Positions 31,213-41,444 are shown, numbered from the stretch's first letter. The stretch: DNA of 64,000 nucleotides from an uncultured Chloroflexia bacterium (GCA_963768655.1 CAVYIM010000007.1:128001-192000), one strand, 5' to 3'. Notes: a model not told the origin generated them from the letters alone. Numbers and translations: made by a program.

Positions 31213-31773
31213 ATGAGCCAACGAACCGAACGAATCGACGAGCTTCTTCGCCAGGAGATCGGGCGGGCGCTAGAGGGCGAGCTGGCCGATCCCGGGATCG
31301 GCTTCGTCACCGTCACCGACGTCGAGACGAGCCCGGATCTGGCCCACGCGCGCGTCTGGGTGAGTGTCATCGGGACGGAGGAGCAGCGCAAAGAAACGCT
31401 GGCGGCGCTGCGTCGGGCGATGCCGTACGTCCGTCACGGCCTCAACTCGAAGATTCGGCTGCGGCGGATACCCGAACTCGACGTCCGCCTGGACGATTCG
31501 ATCGAACGGGGGACGCGAGTGCTGCATCTGATCAACGAGCTCGAGGCCGGACGTGATCCGGAGGAGGCCGCGGCCCCGCTCGAGTCGCTTCCGACCCCGG
31601 TCGCACGTTTGCCCCACGAGGGCGACGTACCCGAACCTGGCTCTGCCGTGCTCCCGCCGTCGAAGCCCAGAACGAAGCCGGGGCGCCGGCCGGCGGCCGG
31701 CCGAGGCGGGAAATCCGGGTCGAAGCCGGCGTCAAAGCCCGGTCGCGGAGACGGCCGGAGAGGAAGCCGATGA
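31213..31773 (+). CDS. rbfA: Ribosome-binding factor A with basic C-terminal tail
   Basis: DPGIGFVTVT.VETSPDL..ARV, LRRIPEL...D.SIE.G. Confidence 0.94.
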   Translation: MSQRTERIDELLRQEIGRALEGELADPGIGFVTVTDVETSPDLAHARVWVSVIGTEEQRKETLAALRRAMPYVRHGLNSKIRLRRIPELDVRLDDSIERGTRVLHLINELEAGRDPEEAAAPLESLPTPVARLPHEGDVPEPGSAVLPPSKPRTKPGRRPAAGRGGKSGSKPASKPGRGDGRRGSR

Positions 31774-32810
31774 GCGCCACCGAGCCGCGTGTCGATCTCT
31801 CCGAGTTCGCGGCCGCGGTGCCCCAGGAGGTGGTTGACCGCCTTCGAGCCGGGCGGCGGGTTCTGACGATCTGCCACGAGAACCCCGAGGCCGATGCGCT
31901 CGGTTCTGCGCTCGCGATCGCGCTGCTGGTCGAAGCGGGTGGGGGAGTGGCCACGCCCGTGTGCGCGGACCCGATGCCGGCGGTGTACGGCTTCCTGCCG
32001 GGCATGGACCGCTTTCGGCGCGAGCCGGCCGCCGATCTCGACTACGACCTTCTGGTCGTGGGCGACTGCGGCGAGCTGGAGCGGATCGGGCCCGTGCTGG
32101 AATCGCACCGGGCGCTCTTCGAGCGGGTGCCGATCCTCGACATCGACCACCACGTGTCGAACCGGCATTTCGGCGCCTTCGATTGGGTCGATCCGCGCAG
32201 CTCGGCCACGTGCGAGATGGTGACCCTCCTGGCCTGGCGAATGGGCGTCCCGCTGACGGCGGCGGACGGGACGCTCGCGTCGGCCCTTGCGGCAGGCGTG
32301 GTCATGGACACCGGCAACTTCCAGCACACCAATACGACGCCGCGCACCCTCGTAGTGGCCGCGGCCCTGCGCGAGGCGGGCGCGCCACTCAGCGAGATCG
32401 CCCGCCGGATCTACCGCACCAAGCCCAACAGCCAGCTCGTTCTCTTCGGCCGCGTCCTGTCGAGGCTCGAGTCAGACTGCGGTGGCAGGCTGGTCTGGTC
32501 CACGCTCGAACTGGCCGACCTGGCCGCGGCGGGGGCCGGCTCGGACGAGTCCGAGGGTCTCGTCGACATGCTCGCCCAGGCCCGCGACGCCGACGTCGCA
32601 ATTCTCTTCAAGGAAGCTGACGGGGCGACACGCATGAGCGTCCGAACGCGCGACGGCGTGGATGCCACCGTGCTGACCGGCACGTTCGGCGGCGGCGGGC
32701 ATGCTCGCGCCGCCGGGGCGACCGTCCGCCTGCCGCTGATCGAGGCGCGCCGCGTGGTGCTGGCTCGTGCCGTCGAACTGGTGGAAGCTGGCGGGCCGAA
32801 GGCGCAATGA
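31770..32810 (+). CDS. nrnA: DHH/DHHA1 phosphoesterase (NrnA-like nanoRNase/pAp phosphatase)
   Basis: HENPEADALGS, DIDHH, DTGNF, SVR and GGGGHARAAG, in the rbfA-nrnA-truB order. Confidence 0.9.
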   Translation: MSATEPRVDLSEFAAAVPQEVVDRLRAGRRVLTICHENPEADALGSALAIALLVEAGGGVATPVCADPMPAVYGFLPGMDRFRREPAADLDYDLLVVGDCGELERIGPVLESHRALFERVPILDIDHHVSNRHFGAFDWVDPRSSATCEMVTLLAWRMGVPLTAADGTLASALAAGVVMDTGNFQHTNTTPRTLVVAAALREAGAPLSEIARRIYRTKPNSQLVLFGRVLSRLESDCGGRLVWSTLELADLAAAGAGSDESEGLVDMLAQARDADVAILFKEADGATRMSVRTRDGVDATVLTGTFGGGGHARAAGATVRLPLIEARRVVLARAVELVEAGGPKAQ

Positions 32811-34642
32811 GCGACTTCGGCCGCGCCACGGAAGGCGGGATGGACGGGGTTCTCGTCCTGGCCAAGCCATCCGGCCCCACTTCACACGATATGGTCGGCC
32901 TGATACGTCGCCTGAGCGGCACTCGGCGCGTTGGACACGGCGGCACACTCGATCCCTTCGCGTCCGGCGTCCTGCCCGTCTTTCTGGGACTCGGGACGCG
33001 CGTCGTCGAATACCACATGGGCGATGACAAGGCGTATCGAGCCACGATCTGCTTCGGTGCCAGCTCGCCCACGGACGATCGAGACGGGGAGCTCGTCCCC
33101 GGCGATGGGCCGGCGCCGGCTCGCGAGGCGGTCGTGGAGGCGCTCGCCGGATTCCGCGGGTCGGTCGAGCAGCGTCCGCCGGCGTTCAGCGCCATGAAGG
33201 TGGGCGGGCGGCGTGCCTATCAGCTGGCTCGACAGGGTCAGCCAGTCGCGCTCGCTTCTCGGACCGTCAGGATCGACCGACTCGAACTGGTCGAGTGGGA
33301 CGGCTCGGACCCGGATCGCCCCACCGCGGTCCTGGAGATCGAGTGCGGGGCCGGCACCTACGTCCGGTCGCTGGCGCGCGACCTCGGGGAGCGGCTGGGC
33401 TGCGGCGCCTATCTGGGAGCTCTCACGCGAACCCGCAGCGGGCCGTTCCGCCTGGAGGCGGCGCACGATCTCGACGCCGTGCGGGCCGCAGCCGCAGGCG
33501 GGCGAGTGGCCCTGGCCGGACTCCTGCTGCCGGTAGACGTCGGCCTCGAGTCGATCCCGGCCGCGCCCCTTGCCGACGACGAGGTGACGGCGACGGCGCG
33601 CGGCCAGCAGGTGAAGCCCGCGCAGCGGCCCCATGTCGAGCAGGGATCCAGGGTCAGGCTGGTTGATGCGCGCGGAGCACTCGTCGGCATCGGGTCATGG
33701 CGGTCAGGGCGGATCGTGCCGGAGAAGATGTTCGTCGTCCCGACCTCGGCGAATCGCCAGGTCGATGCCGAAGCGCCCGCTTCGCGGAGCCTGCCCGGCG
33801 AGCCGCGGCTGCAATACGCTCGAGCCGGTGTACCGCACGAGGTCGTCCCCGGAGTGGATGCGCTTCGGGCGGAGATGGGCCGGCTGTACGTTGCAGTGGG
33901 CGTCTTCGACGGCCTGCATCGGGGCCACCTCTACCTGCTGCGGGAGCTTCGTCATGCCGCGGCGCGTACAGATGCGAGGCCGGCCGTGATCACGTTCGAT
34001 GCTCATCCCGAAGAAGTCGTGATGGGGCTCGCACCGCCGCTGCTGTGCGATCCGGACGAGCGTCTCGTCCGACTTAGCGCCGCGGGCGCGGAGGTCACCG
34101 TCGTCCAGCATTTCGACCATTCGCTTCGCACGACCACGTATCAGGAGTTCGTCGCCCGCATCCGCGATCGAGTGGACCTGGCCGGCTTCGTGATGACGCC
34201 CGACGCCGCGTTCGGCTACGAGCGCCGCGGGACGCCCGAGGCGCTGACCGCACTGGGTCGGGAAGCGGGCTTCGAAGTCACCATCGTTCACTCGCTGCTC
34301 CTCGACGGCGAGCAGGTCCGCAGCTCGGAGATTCGAAGGCGCGTCGCTGCCGGCGATCTGGCGGCCGCCCAGCGGATGCTCGGCCGGCCGCTCTCGGTCA
34401 CGGGTTGCGTTGACGCGGCTGCGGGCCGCACAGGCGCGGTTCGCATCCGATTCGACCTGCCCGTCGTGCTGCCGCCGCCAGGCCGCTATGCGGTATTGGT
34501 CGGCGCGCCGTGGCAGGCGGATGCCCCGGCCCTCCGTGCCGACAGGCCCGCGACGGGCGTGGTGGACGCCGACGGGCTGACGCTCGAGGATGGGGCCTGG
34601 GAAGATCTGCCGGATCGTTTGAGAGTCGTCTTCAGCGCTTAA
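32807..34642 (+). CDS. truB: TruB tRNA pseudouridine(55) synthase fused to a RibF-like FMN adenylyltransferase domain
   Basis: N-terminal part has KPSGPTSHD, GHGGTLDP, QRPPAFSA and GTYVRSL. C-terminal part has GVFDGLHRGH, ITFDAHP, FGY.RRG and VRSSEIR. Confidence 0.92.
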   Translation: MSDFGRATEGGMDGVLVLAKPSGPTSHDMVGLIRRLSGTRRVGHGGTLDPFASGVLPVFLGLGTRVVEYHMGDDKAYRATICFGASSPTDDRDGELVPGDGPAPAREAVVEALAGFRGSVEQRPPAFSAMKVGGRRAYQLARQGQPVALASRTVRIDRLELVEWDGSDPDRPTAVLEIECGAGTYVRSLARDLGERLGCGAYLGALTRTRSGPFRLEAAHDLDAVRAAAAGGRVALAGLLLPVDVGLESIPAAPLADDEVTATARGQQVKPAQRPHVEQGSRVRLVDARGALVGIGSWRSGRIVPEKMFVVPTSANRQVDAEAPASRSLPGEPRLQYARAGVPHEVVPGVDALRAEMGRLYVAVGVFDGLHRGHLYLLRELRHAAARTDARPAVITFDAHPEEVVMGLAPPLLCDPDERLVRLSAAGAEVTVVQHFDHSLRTTTYQEFVARIRDRVDLAGFVMTPDAAFGYERRGTPEALTALGREAGFEVTIVHSLLLDGEQVRSSEIRRRVAAGDLAAAQRMLGRPLSVTGCVDAAAGRTGAVRIRFDLPVVLPPPGRYAVLVGAPWQADAPALRADRPATGVVDADGLTLEDGAWEDLPDRLRVVFSA

Positions 34643-34756: not shown

Positions 34757-35026
34757 GTGCCGCTCGCGCGGGAAGCGAAGGAACAGGTGATCTCGGATTA
34801 CGCCGTCCATGAGGGCGACACTGGCTCCGCAGAGGTGCAGATTGCGCTCCTGACCGAAAGGATCAAGGAGCTCACGGAGCATCTGCGGGGCTTTCCGAAG
34901 GACAACCAGTCCCGCCGCGGCCTCCTCAAGCTCGTCGGACAGCGAAGGCGCCTTCTTGCTTACCTGATCAAGAAGGACAACGCCCGCTATCGCGCCGTCA
35001 TCGCACGGCTCGGACTTCGCCGCTAG
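34757..35026 (+). CDS. rpsO: 30S ribosomal protein S15
   Basis: [13 protein letters not shown]...[19 protein letters not shown]...LGLRR. Confidence 0.98.
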
Positions 35027-35142
35027 CGCTGCAGCCGAGGCGCGGGGCAGAGACCTCGCGCAGGTGCGGCTCACGCGCTCGGCCGGTCCAGGCGAGTTTC
35101 GGAACACCGTCCGTCCTCCTGGCTCAGGAGGAATACAAGCCC

Positions 35143-37731
35143 GTGTCTCAAACATTCGAGACGCAGTTCGCAGGACGCACCCTCAGCATCGAGACCGGCA
35201 AGCTGGCCATGCTCGCCGGCGGTGCCGTCACGGTCCGCTTCGGCGACACGATGGTGCTCGGCACCGCAAACCGGGCCGATCCGCGGCCCGGCCTCGACTT
35301 CTTCCCCCTCACGGTCGAGTTCGAAGAGCGCATGTACGCCGCCGGCAAGATCCCGGGCGGTTTCATCAAGCGTGAGTCGCGTCCGTCGGAGCAGGCCATC
35401 CTGGCCTGCCGCCTGACCGACCGCCCGATCCGGCCGCTCTTCCCCGAGGGCTACAAGGACGACATCCAGATCGTGATCACGGTCCTTTCCACGGACCAGG
35501 AGAACCAGACCGACGTCCTCGGCACGTTTGCCGCGTCGTGCGCTCTGACGATCAGCGCCATCCCGTTCCTCGGACCCATCGGCGCCGTCCGTATCGGCCG
35601 CATCGACGGCGAGTTCGTCGTCAATCCGACGATCAGCGACCTCGAGCGCTCCGACATCGACCTCATCGTGTCGGGGACTCGCGACGCGATCATGATGGTC
35701 GAGGCCGGTGCCTCGATCGTCCCCGAAGACGTCATGGCCGACGCCATCCTCTTCGGCCATCGCGCCCTCCAGCCGCTCATCGACATCCAGGATGAGATGC
35801 GCGCGGCCGTCGGCAAGCCCAAGACGGTGGGTTACCTCGAGCCGGGCACCGCTTCGGTCCTCGAGTTCGTCCACAAGGTGAGCGAACGTGGCGCCGAGTT
35901 CGTCGTCCTGGACACCGAGACGACCGGCCGCGACGCCAAGATGGCGGACCTCGTCGAGATCGGCGCAGTGCGTGTCCGCGACGGCGAGATAGTCGACCGC
36001 TTCTCCACCTTCGTGAACCCGGGCCGCACGATCTTCGGCGCCCAGATGCACGGCATCACGGACGCGGACGTGGCCGGCGCCCCGGCCCCGCGCGACGCCG
36101 CGCTGCGTTTCCTCGAGTTCGCCGGCACGAGCAGCCTGATCGGGCACAACGTCGGCTTCGACCTGGGCTTCATCGAGCAGGCGCTCGGCGAACCCGGCAA
36201 GTTCGCCGAGGCGAGCTACTTCGACACTCTGGCCATCGCCCGCGAAGGCTACCCGGATCTCGAGTCGTACAAGCTTGGCGACATCGCCCGCTTCTTCAAT
36301 CTCACGGTCGAGACGGCCCATCGCGGTCTTGCCGACGCCGAGACCACGGCCGCCATTCTGGCCGAGTTCGCCAGGGATTTGCCGCCGCGCATCCAGCTGC
36401 TCGAAGACGCCATCGCCGTCTCCATCCGGGCCAACCGCCAGGAAGGCCAGGACTCGGCGGCCCTGCTCGAAGCCGCACGTCGCCAGGCGCGCGTCAGCAA
36501 GAGCCTCTTCCAGCTCGTCCAGAAGAAGACCGTCCGCAAGCTGATCTTCGACGAGGGCATCCGCATGGATGGCCGCGGCGTCGACGACATTCGCCCGATC
36601 TCCGTTGAGGTCGGCGTGCTGCCACGAGCCCACGGCTCCGGTCTGTTCACGCGCGGCCAGACCCAGGCCCTGACGGTGGCCACGCTGGGTCCCGCTTCGG
36701 ACGTCCAGCGGATCGACACGATCAGCCCCGAGACGGAGAAGCGGTATCTACACCACTACAACATGCCGCCGTACAGCACCGGCGAGAACAAGCCGATGCG
36801 CGGTCCCGGTCGGCGCGAGATCGGTCACGGCCACCTCGCCGAGCGGGCACTGCTGCCGGTCCTGCCGTCGGAGGACGAGTTTCCGTACGTCATCCGCCTC
36901 GTCAGCGAGTGCGTGACCTCGAACGGTTCGACCTCGATGGCCTCGACCTGCGGTTCCAGCCTGGCCCTCATGGACGCCGGCGTGCCGATCAAGGCCGCCG
37001 TCGGCGGCGCCGCGATGGGCCTGATCAGCGAGCCGGACGGACGGTTCGTGATCCTGACCGACATCCTCGGCAAGGAAGACGCCTTCGGCGACATGGATTT
37101 CAAAGTGACCGGCACCCGCGAGGGCGTGACGGCGCTGCAGATGGACATCAAGGTCAAGGGCATCAGCGAGGCGATCATCCGCCAGGGCCTGGAGAAGGCC
37201 CACGCCGCTCGAATGGCGATCCTCGACAAGATGGATGCGGTCATCCCGGCGAGCCGCACGGAGATGAGCAACTTCGCGCCTCGCATCATCACCATCAAGA
37301 TCAATCCCGAGAAGATCCGCGACATCATCGGCAAGGGCGGCTCCGTGATCCGCAAGATCCAGGAGGAGACCGGCACCGAGATCAACGTGGAGGATGACGG
37401 CACGGTCCAGATCGCCGCGGTGTCGGGTGAGAACTCGCGCAAGGCGGTCCAGTGGATCGAGTCGCTCACTCGCGACGTGGAGATCGGCGGCCTGTATCTG
37501 GGCAAGGTGACCCGGATCATGGGCTTCGGCTGCTTCGTGGAAATCCTGCCGGGCAAGGAGGGCCTGGTCCGGATCGGAGAGCTGGCCGACTACCACGTGC
37601 CCACAGTCGAGGACGTGGTTTCAGTCGGCGACGAGGTCATGGTCGTGGTCACCGAGATCGACAGGCAGGGCCGCGTCAATCTCTCCCGCAAGGCCGCGAT
37701 GCAGCGTCATCTGGCCCGCACCGAGAGCTGA
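35143..37731 (+). CDS. pnp: Polyribonucleotide nucleotidyltransferase with internal DEDDh exonuclease domain
   Basis: PH1 (DFFPLTV, GKIPGGF, RLTDRPIRPLFP), PH2 (HGSGLFTRGQTQ, RREIGHG, SNGSTSMAS, DAFGDMDFKV), KH (IIGKGG) and S1. An extra domain of about 160 aa lies at 35896-36369. Confidence 0.97.
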   Translation: MSQTFETQFAGRTLSIETGKLAMLAGGAVTVRFGDTMVLGTANRADPRPGLDFFPLTVEFEERMYAAGKIPGGFIKRESRPSEQAILACRLTDRPIRPLFPEGYKDDIQIVITVLSTDQENQTDVLGTFAASCALTISAIPFLGPIGAVRIGRIDGEFVVNPTISDLERSDIDLIVSGTRDAIMMVEAGASIVPEDVMADAILFGHRALQPLIDIQDEMRAAVGKPKTVGYLEPGTASVLEFVHKVSERGAEFVVLDTETTGRDAKMADLVEIGAVRVRDGEIVDRFSTFVNPGRTIFGAQMHGITDADVAGAPAPRDAALRFLEFAGTSSLIGHNVGFDLGFIEQALGEPGKFAEASYFDTLAIAREGYPDLESYKLGDIARFFNLTVETAHRGLADAETTAAILAEFARDLPPRIQLLEDAIAVSIRANRQEGQDSAALLEAARRQARVSKSLFQLVQKKTVRKLIFDEGIRMDGRGVDDIRPISVEVGVLPRAHGSGLFTRGQTQALTVATLGPASDVQRIDTISPETEKRYLHHYNMPPYSTGENKPMRGPGRREIGHGHLAERALLPVLPSEDEFPYVIRLVSECVTSNGSTSMASTCGSSLALMDAGVPIKAAVGGAAMGLISEPDGRFVILTDILGKEDAFGDMDFKVTGTREGVTALQMDIKVKGISEAIIRQGLEKAHAARMAILDKMDAVIPASRTEMSNFAPRIITIKINPEKIRDIIGKGGSVIRKIQEETGTEINVEDDGTVQIAAVSGENSRKAVQWIESLTRDVEIGGLYLGKVTRIMGFGCFVEILPGKEGLVRIGELADYHVPTVEDVVSVGDEVMVVVTEIDRQGRVNLSRKAAMQRHLARTES

Positions 37732-39775: not shown

Positions 39776-41444
39776 ATGCCTGAATCACAGATACCGCTTC
39801 GAATCATCCCCCTCGGAGGCGTGGGGGAGATCGGCAAGAACATGTACGTCTTCGAGTATGGCGACGACATCGTCGTCGTCGACTGTGGACTCATGTTCCC
39901 CGATGAGGAGATGTTCGGGATCGATCTGGTGATCCCCGACGTCACCTACCTGCGCGAGAACCGAGAGAAGGTCCGCGCCTTCCTGATCACTCACGCCCAC
40001 GAGGATCACGTCGGCGGGCTGCCATACGTGCTCCCGTACTTCCCCGGCGTGCCCGTGTATGCGTCAACGCTGGCCCGCGGCCTGCTCGGCATCAAGATCA
40101 AGGAGCACAAGCTCCACAACAACCCGCTCTTGCCCCTGGATCCGGGCGACAACCTCGAGATCGGGCCGTTCCGCGTCGAGCCGTTCCGGATCAGCCACTC
40201 GAATTCCGGACGCGATGGGAATCGCCCTCCACACGCCGATCGGGACGGTCGTCACGACGGGCGACTTCAAGTTCGACCACACGCCGGTCGACGGCCGCCG
40301 GTCCGACTTTGCCATGCTTTCGCGCCTGGGCGAGGACGGCGTGGTCTGCCTGCTCTCAGATTCGACTCGGGCCGAGAGTCCCGGCTACACGCTCTCTGAG
40401 CGGACCGTCGGTGAGACCTTCCGCGAGATCATGGAGCCGCTGGACGGCCGGGTCATCGTGGCCACGTTCGCCAGCAACATCGCCCGCATCCAGCAGGTCA
40501 TCGACGCCGCCGCGACGTTCGACCGCAAGGTCGCGGTCGTGGGCCGCTCCATGGAGCAGAATTTTCGCATCGCGACTGACCTTGGGTACCTGACGTATGC
40601 CCCAGGCCAGATCGTGGGCAAGGATCAGATCGGGTCCACGGCGGCGGACAAGATCGTCATCGCCACGACCGGCGCCCAGGGGGAGCCAATGGCCGGCCTG
40701 GCCCGCATGGCCAACCGCGACCACCGCTTCGTTGAGATCCAGCCGGGCGACACCGTAATCGTCAGCGCCAGCCCGATCCCCGGCAACGAAGAGTATGTGG
40801 CTCGGACCATCGACAACCTCTTCAAGGCCGGCGCCAATGTCTACTACCACACCGTCAAGCACGCCCACGTTTCGGGCCACGCCAGCCAGGAAGAGCTGAA
40901 ACTGATGCTGGGCCTGACCAGGCCGAAGTACTTCATCCCGATTCACGGCGAATTCCGGATGCTTGTCCAGCACGGCCGCCTCGCCGTGGAGACCGGGGTG
41001 GCCCCTGAGAACGTGTTCATCATCGAGAACGGCCAGGCCATCGAGTTCTTCGCGGACGGCACCGCCCGGCGCGCCGCCCCCGTAACCTCCGGCTACGTGC
41101 TCGTGGACGGGCTGTCCGTCGGCGACGTCGGCGAAGTGGTCCTGCGCGACAGGCGGGCGCTCGCCAGCGACGGCATGTTCATCATCGTCGTGACCGTGGA
41201 TAAGCAGACCGGGAAAGTGGTGGCTCGGCCCGAGATCGTGACTCGCGGCTTCATACACGGGAACGAGCGAGACCCGCTCATCGACGGGGCGGTGGAGCAC
41301 ATCATGGCCGCGGTCGAGAGCCCGGGCGATCGGACCAGCGAGGTGGGCCTTCTCAAGAGCCAGATCAAGGACGAAGTGTCGCGGTATCTCTACGAGCAGA
41401 CGCGGCGGCGGCCGCTCGTCTTCCCGGTCGTGGTGGAGGTCTGA
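39776..41444 (+). CDS. rnj: Ribonuclease J, +1 frameshift at about 40201-40203
   Basis: PLGGVGEIGKN and THAHEDH in the first frame; (HS)IPD, TGDFKFD, SDST, ATFASN and HVSGHA in the next frame. Confidence 0.94.

Follow-up and report, generated by a model that had tools for sequence, protein, structure and literature searches.

A polynucleotide phosphorylase with a conserved DEDDh exonuclease domain inserted in its interdomain linker in an uncultured class of Chloroflexota

Polynucleotide phosphorylase (PNPase) is among the most studied enzymes of RNA decay and its domain order is treated as universal. Canonical PNPases (TIGR03591; structures 5yjj, 3cdi, 4aim, and 1e3h) feature a first RNase PH-like domain (PH1), a linker, a second RNase PH-like domain (PH2), a KH domain, and an S1 domain. 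The pnp gene described here is located in a 64,000-nucleotide stretch of DNA (GCA_963768655.1 CAVYIM010000007.1:128001-192000), referred to as the window, from an uncultured bacterium of soil and freshwater. The organism belongs to the class named Candidatus Limnocylindria in public record titles, which is part of the Chloroflexota. The gene product shares with canonical PNPases the order of the domains, the PH2 motifs, and the rpsO-pnp context, however, it differs by a DEDDh domain of 153 amino acids (aa) in the linker, and every match to a canonical PNPase falls in two stretches.

Several described systems resemble parts of this architecture. The DnaQ-DinG proteins of Bacillus subtilis and Staphylococcus aureus (8zef) feature the same DEDDh subtype, and DinG-type exonucleases are among the nearest groups in the domain tree. 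Their nuclease is N-terminal and accompanied by a superfamily 2 (SF2) motor, whereas the domain in the window protein is internal, has no helicase, and is partnered by a phosphorolytic RNase ring. The PolC exonuclease (2p1j, 9qpc) is the best solved match and a precedent for a DEDDh domain inserted within another catalytic domain. It generally lies within the PHP domain, and in the PolC-like protein P0154 PHP is divided in two around the RNase_T region. The host of the PolC exonuclease is a templated DNA polymerase, whereas here the host is PNPase and proofreading is not evidenced. Cas2-DEDDh fusions (8fy9 and 8fyc, profile E-values of 6.7e-21 and 1.7e-20) join the same DEDDh branch to an unrelated nucleic-acid enzyme, but the fusion is terminal, to a CRISPR adaptation protein without a PH ring, and not internal as in the window PNPase. 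A PH ring is combined with a hydrolytic 3'-5' nuclease, of the DEDD superfamily or of another kind, in the eukaryotic exosome with Rrp6/Dis3, in mitochondrial PNPase with REXO2, and in the Caulobacter degradosome with RNase D (PMC4245959, PMC7261184). DIS3 is located at the bottom of the exosome ring (bioRxiv 10.64898/2026.09.06.749684). The nucleases of these three systems are separate polypeptides, whereas the window protein is one chain. Additionally, the exosome ring is catalytically dead, whereas the PH2 site of the window protein looks intact. Rrp6 and RNase D are of the DEDDy type, and Orn/REXO2 form another DEDDh branch.

The pnp open reading frame (ORF) occupies positions 35143-37731 on the plus strand, starts with GTG, and encodes 862 aa, compared with 736-738 aa for the PNPases of sister families. 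Three families of the class, belonging to two orders, bear the insert (f1, f2, and f4), and f3 and f5 are their sister families. The domain boundaries were derived from Pfam and from alignment A1, which contains nine insert-bearing and five insert-free PNPases, all of the same class. The features of the gene are as follows.

35126-35131, plus strand: AGGAGG, Shine-Dalgarno-like, 11 nucleotides (nt) 5' of the pnp GTG, read from the sequence
35143-35829, plus strand: PH1, residues 1-229, ending at the conserved GKPK (Pfam RNase_PH and RNase_PH_C; alignment A1)
35830-35901, plus strand: first ~24 linker residues (230-253), before the insert (alignment A1)
35902-36360, plus strand: inserted DEDDh (DnaQ-like) 3'-5' exonuclease domain, residues 254-406 (Pfam PF00929, E 1.3e-29)
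35911-35919, plus strand: ExoI catalytic residues D257 (35911-35913) and E259 (35917-35919), motif at residues 254-262
36160-36162, plus strand: ExoII catalytic residue D340 in H-N-x-x-F-D, motif at residues 335-340
36319-36336, plus strand: ExoIII residues H393 (36319-36321) and D398 (36334-36336), the DEDDh-defining H-x4-D at residues 393-398
36361-36531, plus strand: remaining helical linker, residues 407-463 (PF03726 remnant at 447-478; alignment A1)
36532-37257, plus strand: PH2, residues 464-705 (Pfam), with SNGSTS at 593-598 and DAFGDMD at 646-652
37288-37461, plus strand: KH domain, residues 716-773 (Pfam KH_1, E 3.4e-12)
37480-37692, plus strand: S1 domain, residues 780-850 (Pfam S1, E 8.6e-16)

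The curated equivalog score, the PH1/PH2/KH/S1 order, and the PH2 motifs identify the predicted product as a PNPase. It scores 944 bits against TIGR03591 (polynuc_phos; cut-off 525.05), in two stretches, and 942.9 bits against NF008805 (cut-off 471). The Pfam RNase_PH match is also in two stretches (E 1.8e-53), as is that of RNase_PH_C. The SNGSTS and DAFGDMD motifs of PH2, which we take to be the phosphate-binding/catalytic motifs of the phosphorolytic site, are conserved, with S593-S598 and D646/D650/D652 invariant across 14 and 52 aligned PNPases, both insert-bearing and insert-free. The uninterrupted all-alpha linker of ~80-90 aa that joins PH1 and PH2 in PNPases is not found, as the 153-aa PF00929 domain interrupts it. 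PF00929 (RNase_T) matches the product with 104.3 bits (cut-off 24) over the whole profile (1-164 of 164), and the insert features the ExoI D-x-E, the ExoII D, and the ExoIII H-x4-D, as well as HGIT at residues 303-306 and YKL at residues 376-378. Pfam revealed no helicase, PHP, polymerase, or finger domain in the ORF. An earlier reading made from the sequence alone (the sequence-only reading) had claimed an 862-aa PNPase with an in-frame DEDDh domain between its PH domains, and the ORF, Pfam, and TIGR03591 agree with it. Every motif that it quoted was found at the residue it had named, including the end of PH1 at 217-227 and the start of PH2 at 464-478. Its insert, 35896-36369 or residues 252-409, agrees with the Pfam domain at 254-406, and its statement that the PNPase motifs, KH, and S1 are intact is borne out by Pfam and the invariant PH2 residues. 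The public names of the same protein conceal this architecture: it is a plain PNPase at NCBI and a 'DNA polymerase III epsilon subunit family exonuclease' at JGI.

The position of the insert was determined from alignment A1. The spacing from GKPK to DGR is ~89 residues in insert-free PNPases and 251 in the window protein, and the net gain of ~162 residues corresponds to the DEDDh domain plus a few residues. Linker residues are retained on both sides of the insert, ~25 before and ~70 after, which argues that the DEDDh module was inserted into the helical domain. Judged from the alignment, the module interrupts the helical domain and is not a substitute for it, and the insertion point is apparently between the first and second helices. 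The profile of the PNPase helical domain, PF03726, leaves a weak remnant at residues 447-478 (profile 49-80 of 81; 21.4 bits, below the 24.6 cut-off). The best solved PNPase, 5yjj (E 7.5e-214), matches in two parts, 3-264 and 459-853. The sequence-only reading, which noted a small helical domain at this position in canonical PNPases, is refined here: the helical domain is retained, with the insert ~25 residues into it. The linker before the insert features a P-[YF]-[LIV]-x-P-x3-S-[VI] pattern common to f1, f2, and f4, and S238 is nearly invariant in alignment A2. After the insert, the linker up to about residue 423 aligns by BLASTP with the helix that follows the exonuclease domain of DnaQ-DinG. 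A separate difference visible in A1 is a 40-50-residue Arg/Gly-rich tail after S1 in the PNPases of f3 and f5 (loci L024-L028), which is absent from all insert-bearing PNPases.

The distribution of the architecture was determined with residues 215-480 (266 residues) as the query in a sample of 151 genomes of the class. The full region is matched in 45/45 genomes of f1 (the source genome included), 6/6 of f2, and 48/50 of f4; of the remaining two f4 genomes, one has a match truncated where its contig ends and the other, 92% complete, has none. The sister families match with the DEDDh part only, in proteins other than PNPase (f3 47/49, f5 1/1), and these matches are the N-terminal parts of DnaQ-DinG proteins, which are 890-1040 aa long and feature RNase_T, DEAD, and Helicase_C_2 domains. 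An insert-free PNPase is present in 5/5 checked f3/f5 genomes and in 5/5 other Chloroflexota, where the match is split around a 21-70-residue gap. In a 301-genome sample of the phylum, full-length matches came from f1, f2, and f4 only, among the 150 best listed. The class and phylum counts, like the Helicase_C_2, PF00929, and NrnA-like gene counts below, include nine unpublished genomes (G119, G128, G154, G101, G132, G164, G408, G324, and G341), on which no conclusion rests.

Wider searches gave the same result. When 8000 candidates from a word-indexed protein search with residues 215-480 were scored, 1359 reached E<=1e-3, and among the matches listed 120/120 proteins carry both PF00929 and PF01138, with 73-100% identity and contigs as long as 2 Mb. 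With one genome scanned per GTDB species, 120 stretches were confirmed, and the 80 that were kept are all from metagenome-assembled genomes (MAGs), including a 3.6-Mb chromosome. Their titles are mostly Chloroflexi/Chloroflexota, Candidatus Limnocylindrales/Limnocylindria, or 'uncultured Chloroflexia'. The odd labels are Actinomycetota (a 1,279-nt contig), Verrucomicrobiia (a 2,200-nt contig), and Ca. Sulfomarinibacteraceae (a 21.9-kb contig), and at least the Actinomycetota and Verrucomicrobiia labels on short contigs are taken to be binning or labelling noise. Three ESM Atlas clusters, reached through a stored homologue 88% identical to the window protein, contain both families (125, 164, and 109 members), and Chloroflexota are the commonest members of each. 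In a PNPase tree built after removal of the insert columns, 10 insert-bearing sequences form one clade and 5 insert-free members of the class form another, each with 100/100 support. One gain is the simplest history because the insert-bearing clade is fully supported and PNPase outside the class is canonical, and the tree places this insertion once, in the common ancestor of f1, f2, and f4.

The in-frame architecture is thus far beyond chance, ancient, and not an artefact. An assembly chimera or an artefact of the reading frame has next to no probability, as the identical in-frame architecture is present in hundreds of independent assemblies, on contigs of 0.4-3.6 Mb, and the relatives that share it refute the chimera that the sequence-only reading had set as its own counter-case. 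The G+C fraction is uniform (0.66-0.71 in the insert and 0.64-0.69 in the flanks), and short public contigs of relatives span the PH1-linker junction. These contigs came from four sequencing runs and are 88-99% alike; the runs share at most 0.12 of the sampled words. The pieces listed are 54-259 nt long and their cover is uneven, with some bins of the insert empty, an unevenness that carries no information on the architecture. The junction is crossed by X9 35699-35868 and X3 35775-35871, and pieces within the insert are X1 35895-36058 and X3 36039-36176. Another piece, X9 35977-36065, comes from an RNA library that may hold DNA and is not proof of transcription. The contigs of relatives skip 69-70 nt of variable linker before the DEDDh domain (35824-35894), which most likely reflects divergence of the linker rather than a deletion.

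The insert-bearing families differ from their sisters in a second respect, in that the DnaQ-DinG helicase-nuclease, a protein of the sister families and of other Chloroflexota, is absent from them. Helicase_C_2, the hallmark of DinG/XPD helicases, was found in 48/49 genomes of f3 and 1/1 of f5 versus 1/44 of f1, 0/6 of f2, and 1/50 of f4. Of the two matches in insert-bearing families, one is weak and lies in a 2041-aa frame, and the other is a fragment of 107 aa at the end of a contig. The source genome features a single PF00929 match, which is in pnp, and no Helicase_C_2 match. Exactly one PF00929 match is present in 38/45 genomes of f1, 46/50 of f4, 37/49 of f3, 1/1 of f5, and 1/6 of f2. Typically, a genome of the class has a single DEDDh domain, carried by DinG or by PNPase, and in most insert-bearing genomes the insert is the only one. 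The DinG and PNPase genes are 81 kb apart in one f3 genome, and therefore a simple fusion of neighbouring genes is unlikely. Two further observations concern f2: its genomes are small, ~1.0-1.4 Mb, and the second PF00929 matches in G026, G034, G035, and G040 are 32-33% identical to the insert and located in frames of 190-330 aa.

The kinship of the insert was determined with family models, structures, and trees. The best NCBIfam models for the insert alone are DEDD-GIY-YIG PRK07883 (154 bits), DinG (129 bits), and PolC (127 bits), and TIGR00573 (dnaq) scores 80.2 bits against a cut-off of 71.5. The 25 listed of 31 NCBIfam matches include neither an Orn nor an RNase T model. A profile of 15 inserts compared with all PDB sequences gave the PolC exonuclease (2p1j and 9qpc, 1.8e-34 and 5e-34), followed by the DinG exonuclease 8zef (2.8e-29), Cas2-DEDDh (6.7e-21), epsilon (3.5e-19), and ExoX (5.9e-13). 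RNase T was matched over part of the domain only (1.6e-11), and oligoribonuclease at 2e-4 or worse, mostly without a significant stretch. By these comparisons the insert is a nuclease of the DnaQ/PolC/DinG/epsilon type and not of the RNA-specialised Orn/RNase T type. The sequence-only reading called the domain DnaQ/epsilon-like, in agreement with this; RNase T and oligoribonuclease, which it listed among DEDDh nucleases, are not the branch to which the insert belongs. Over residues 252-423, the insert region and a DinG nuclease of family f3 share 46% identity (BLASTP). The pnp product as a whole falls far below the models for DnaQ-DinG (PRK08074/TIGR01407, 124.6 against a cut-off of 789 and 109.8 against 547.7) and for PolC-type DNA polymerase III (NF001688, 126 against 873). 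In domain trees the inserts form one clade (Shimodaira-Hasegawa-like approximate likelihood ratio test, SH-aLRT, 94; 96/93) and the DnaQ-DinG nucleases of Chloroflexota form another (93/84), and the GIY-YIG-linked DEDDh forms fall elsewhere. Descent of the insert from a resident DinG is allowed but not supported by these trees. Further PNPase fusions were sought among the multi-stretch matches of the representative search, and ten of these, when scanned, proved to be tandem DEDDh-BRCT, DEDDh-UVR, or PolC-like proteins. A 273-aa protein, P0151, a singleton on a 943-nt contig, resembles a stand-alone DEDDh protein and shares 44% identity with the insert, the helix after the domain included. It nests within the clade of PNPase inserts and may be akin to a donor, an excised form, or part of a larger protein; it is too weak to build on.

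The catalytic residues D257, E259, D340, H393, and D398 are kept in 9/9 insert-bearing sequences of alignment A1. The same five residues are present in 220/220 further sequences, with identity to the insert region of the window down to ~40%; this set consists of 80 GTDB-species loci, 20 extra f4 loci, and 120 listed proteins, and the sets may overlap. The ratio of nonsynonymous to synonymous substitution (dN/dS) is 0.12 for the linker plus the DEDDh domain, 0.16 for the rest of the helical domain, and 0.03-0.06 for PH1, PH2, and KH/S1. These values come from one unsaturated pair, the window and a genome of the same genus, as distant pairs are unusable, with dS reaching a plateau at ~0.5-0.6. 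They point to real purifying selection on the insert, looser than that on the cores, and the insert looks catalytically active. A DEDDh domain that only binds 3' ends, gates the access of inorganic phosphate (Pi) and nucleoside diphosphates (NDP), or mediates protein contacts would suit the faster evolution of the insert relative to the PH cores (f1 and f4 share 42% identity in the insert versus 62-78% in PH1 and PH2). Such a non-catalytic role is nevertheless very improbable, given a dN/dS of 0.12 and the retention of all five catalytic residues in 229 sequences that are 40-100% identical.

The reading that is somewhat favoured is that the cell's only PNPase carries an active DEDDh module of the PolC/DinG type in its linker; the most likely specific role of this module would be the work of the lost DinG nuclease. 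The insert-bearing pnp is the sole PNPase found in the source genome, which has a separate RNase PH gene on contig C4. The protein would form the usual PNPase trimer, in which three hydrolytic sites are tethered beside three phosphorolytic sites. Each subunit would have two chemistries that shorten a 3'-OH end, a phosphate-dependent one at PH2 and a metal-dependent hydrolytic one in the DEDDh module on the helical domain. The module may act on single-stranded DNA (ssDNA) and on the 3' ends of R-loops in place of the DinG nuclease, and phosphate-independent trimming of RNA 3' ends by PNPase is a plausible side benefit. That the module performs the lost nuclease's specific job on ssDNA and R-loop 3' ends is suggested by the kinship and the phyletic pattern and is considered possible, though short of probable. 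The action on ssDNA in repair proposed by the sequence-only reading would fit both the kinship and the loss of DnaQ-DinG. The DinG nuclease of B. subtilis attacks ssDNA in the 3'-5' direction as well as the RNA strand in hybrids; it degrades single-stranded RNA only with Mn and leaves 6-8-nt end products (PMC12525004). In the same organism, PNPase is reported to digest RNA in R-loops (PMC13251995) and to have a role in repair as a 3'-5' ssDNA exonuclease that trims ssDNA 3' ends (PMC2709576). The helical domain of PNPase borders the active site and appears to regulate the access of Pi and NDP to it (PMC6181284), and in human PNPase it touches RNA (PMC12685370). A broader version, in which the nuclease head of DnaQ-DinG moved into the PNPase linker while the helicase was discarded, is doubtful as a whole. 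Under that version the trimer would be the sole DEDDh nuclease, would act on the 3' ends of RNA and of DNA/R-loops, would link RNA decay to the resolution of replication-transcription conflicts, and would trim at low phosphate in an abundant uncultured class without RNase II/R.

The genes around pnp bear on the other roles that may be considered. The row consists of nusA, infB, rbfA, a DHH/DHHA1 gene, truB, rpsO, and pnp, in the usual order, and includes the following two features.

31770-32810, plus strand: NrnA-like DHH/DHHA1 protein of 346 aa, a candidate nanoRNase (Pfam DHH and DHHA1)
34757-35026, plus strand: rpsO (ribosomal protein S15), the usual upstream neighbour of pnp (Pfam Ribosomal_S15, E 1.2e-34)

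The NrnA-like gene lies 2.3 kb upstream of pnp and scores 76 bits against the NCBIfam NrnA model, below its cut-off of 350. It was found in 98/101 genomes of the class (f1 34/34 plus the source genome, f2 5/5, f4 38/39, f3 19/21, and f5 1/1), with or without the insert, and therefore the insert-bearing lineages have no visible nanoRNase gap. This weakens the finishing of short decay products, one of the roles offered by the sequence-only reading, in which the DEDDh site would hydrolyse the 2-5-nt oligoribonucleotides released by PH2 and one chain would do what PNPase and Orn/REXO2 do in trans. The insert is suitably placed for such a role, in the helical domain, next to the active site and to the path that small substrates and products take (PMC6181284), and a paper on mitochondrial RNA decay treats PNPase alongside the DEDDh enzyme REXO2 (PMC7261184). 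Orn and RNase T, however, are much more distant from the insert in sequence than PolC, DinG, and epsilon are, and the B. subtilis DinG nuclease stops at 6-8 nt (PMC12525004), which together with the NrnA-like gene makes a nanoRNase finisher quite unlikely.

A further alternative is that the module serves phosphate-independent RNA decay, or removes PNPase-added tails when Pi is scarce, and thereby replaces the missing RNase II/R. Phosphorolysis is reversible, and the RNB family (RNase II/R) was not found in the source genome or in any of 101 genomes of the class, in a search that found it in 11/14 known genomes used as a control. PNPase is therefore the only processive 3'-5' exoribonuclease detected. 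The insert-free sister families likewise lack RNB (f3 0/21, f5 0/1), and because they share the gap, it does not explain the insert. Additionally, the nearest characterised relative favours ssDNA and RNA:DNA hybrids over single-stranded RNA with Mg (PMC12525004), and this alternative is also unlikely. The favoured reading, a transfer of the DinG nuclease's work to PNPase, must itself be set against several findings. The source genome is 88.6% complete, and ExoVII is present, hence the cell has another ssDNA exonuclease. A second DEDDh protein is present in 5/6 genomes of f2 (G025 and G027-G030) and in 7/45 genomes of f1. The anti-correlation with DinG is probably a single historical event, a pattern without statistical weight. 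In the domain trees the insert clade and the DinG nucleases of Chloroflexota meet in a polytomy with other DinG-type sequences and are not placed as sisters, and forcing the inserts and the DinG nucleases of the class together costs 24.9 log-likelihood units (approximately unbiased test, p-AU 0.209), a grouping that is neither rejected nor supported. Finally, by hidden Markov model score DinG is no better a match to the insert than some DEDD-GIY-YIG proteins.

Both parts of the protein belong to textbook families, and as far as searched the combination, the position, and the phyletic story are new. A full-text literature search, which covered text outside subscription journals and supplements and was judged at the level of listed entries and abstracts, found no description of a PNPase with a DEDDh or DnaQ domain, in agreement with the sequence-only reading, which knew of none. 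The protein is a natural, ancient, and strictly conserved variant of PNPase in which a hydrolytic nuclease of the DnaQ type is predicted within the ring subunit. It provides a single-gene system to ask why PH-ring exonucleases often pair with a hydrolytic partner, and it allows tests of the hand-over of 3' ends between phosphorolytic and hydrolytic sites and of how widely the DNA and R-loop functions reported for PNPase apply. As DnaQ-DinG was lost in a complementary manner, a scaffold built for RNA decay can apparently become the new home of a repair nuclease. The carriers that have a record title are all uncultured MAGs, and heterologous expression is therefore the route to a test.

The remaining observations concern the surroundings of the gene and other nucleases. 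The predicted fold of the rpsO-pnp leader lacks significance (z -1.23). A search for promoter-like sites found none, and terminator-like sites number 1 against 1.2 expected. No Rfam family reaches its gathering score on either strand of window positions 1-64000. The ORF at 32807-34642 (plus strand, 611 aa) joins TruB (TIGR00431, 215 bits) to the FAD-synthetase part of RibF, its N-terminal half (profile ~6-204 of 325); this ORF gave no match to the riboflavin-kinase half. The source genome features RNase PH, RNase J, and ExoVII, and no DEDDy domain was found in it. The RNase J gene at 39776-41444 (plus strand) is split over two frames, with the metallo-beta-lactamase part extending to 40201 and the beta-CASP and C-terminal parts starting from 40203. 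This break implies one extra base at ~40202, which is either an assembly indel or a real frameshift. The genome also has two homologues of Pol III alpha without epsilon. One Pol III alpha homologue, outside the window at G000:C3:610119-611831, lies in a 1663-aa frame in which ~900 nt separate the two parts of the DNA_pol3_alpha match, a gap suggestive of an inserted element, e.g., an intein.

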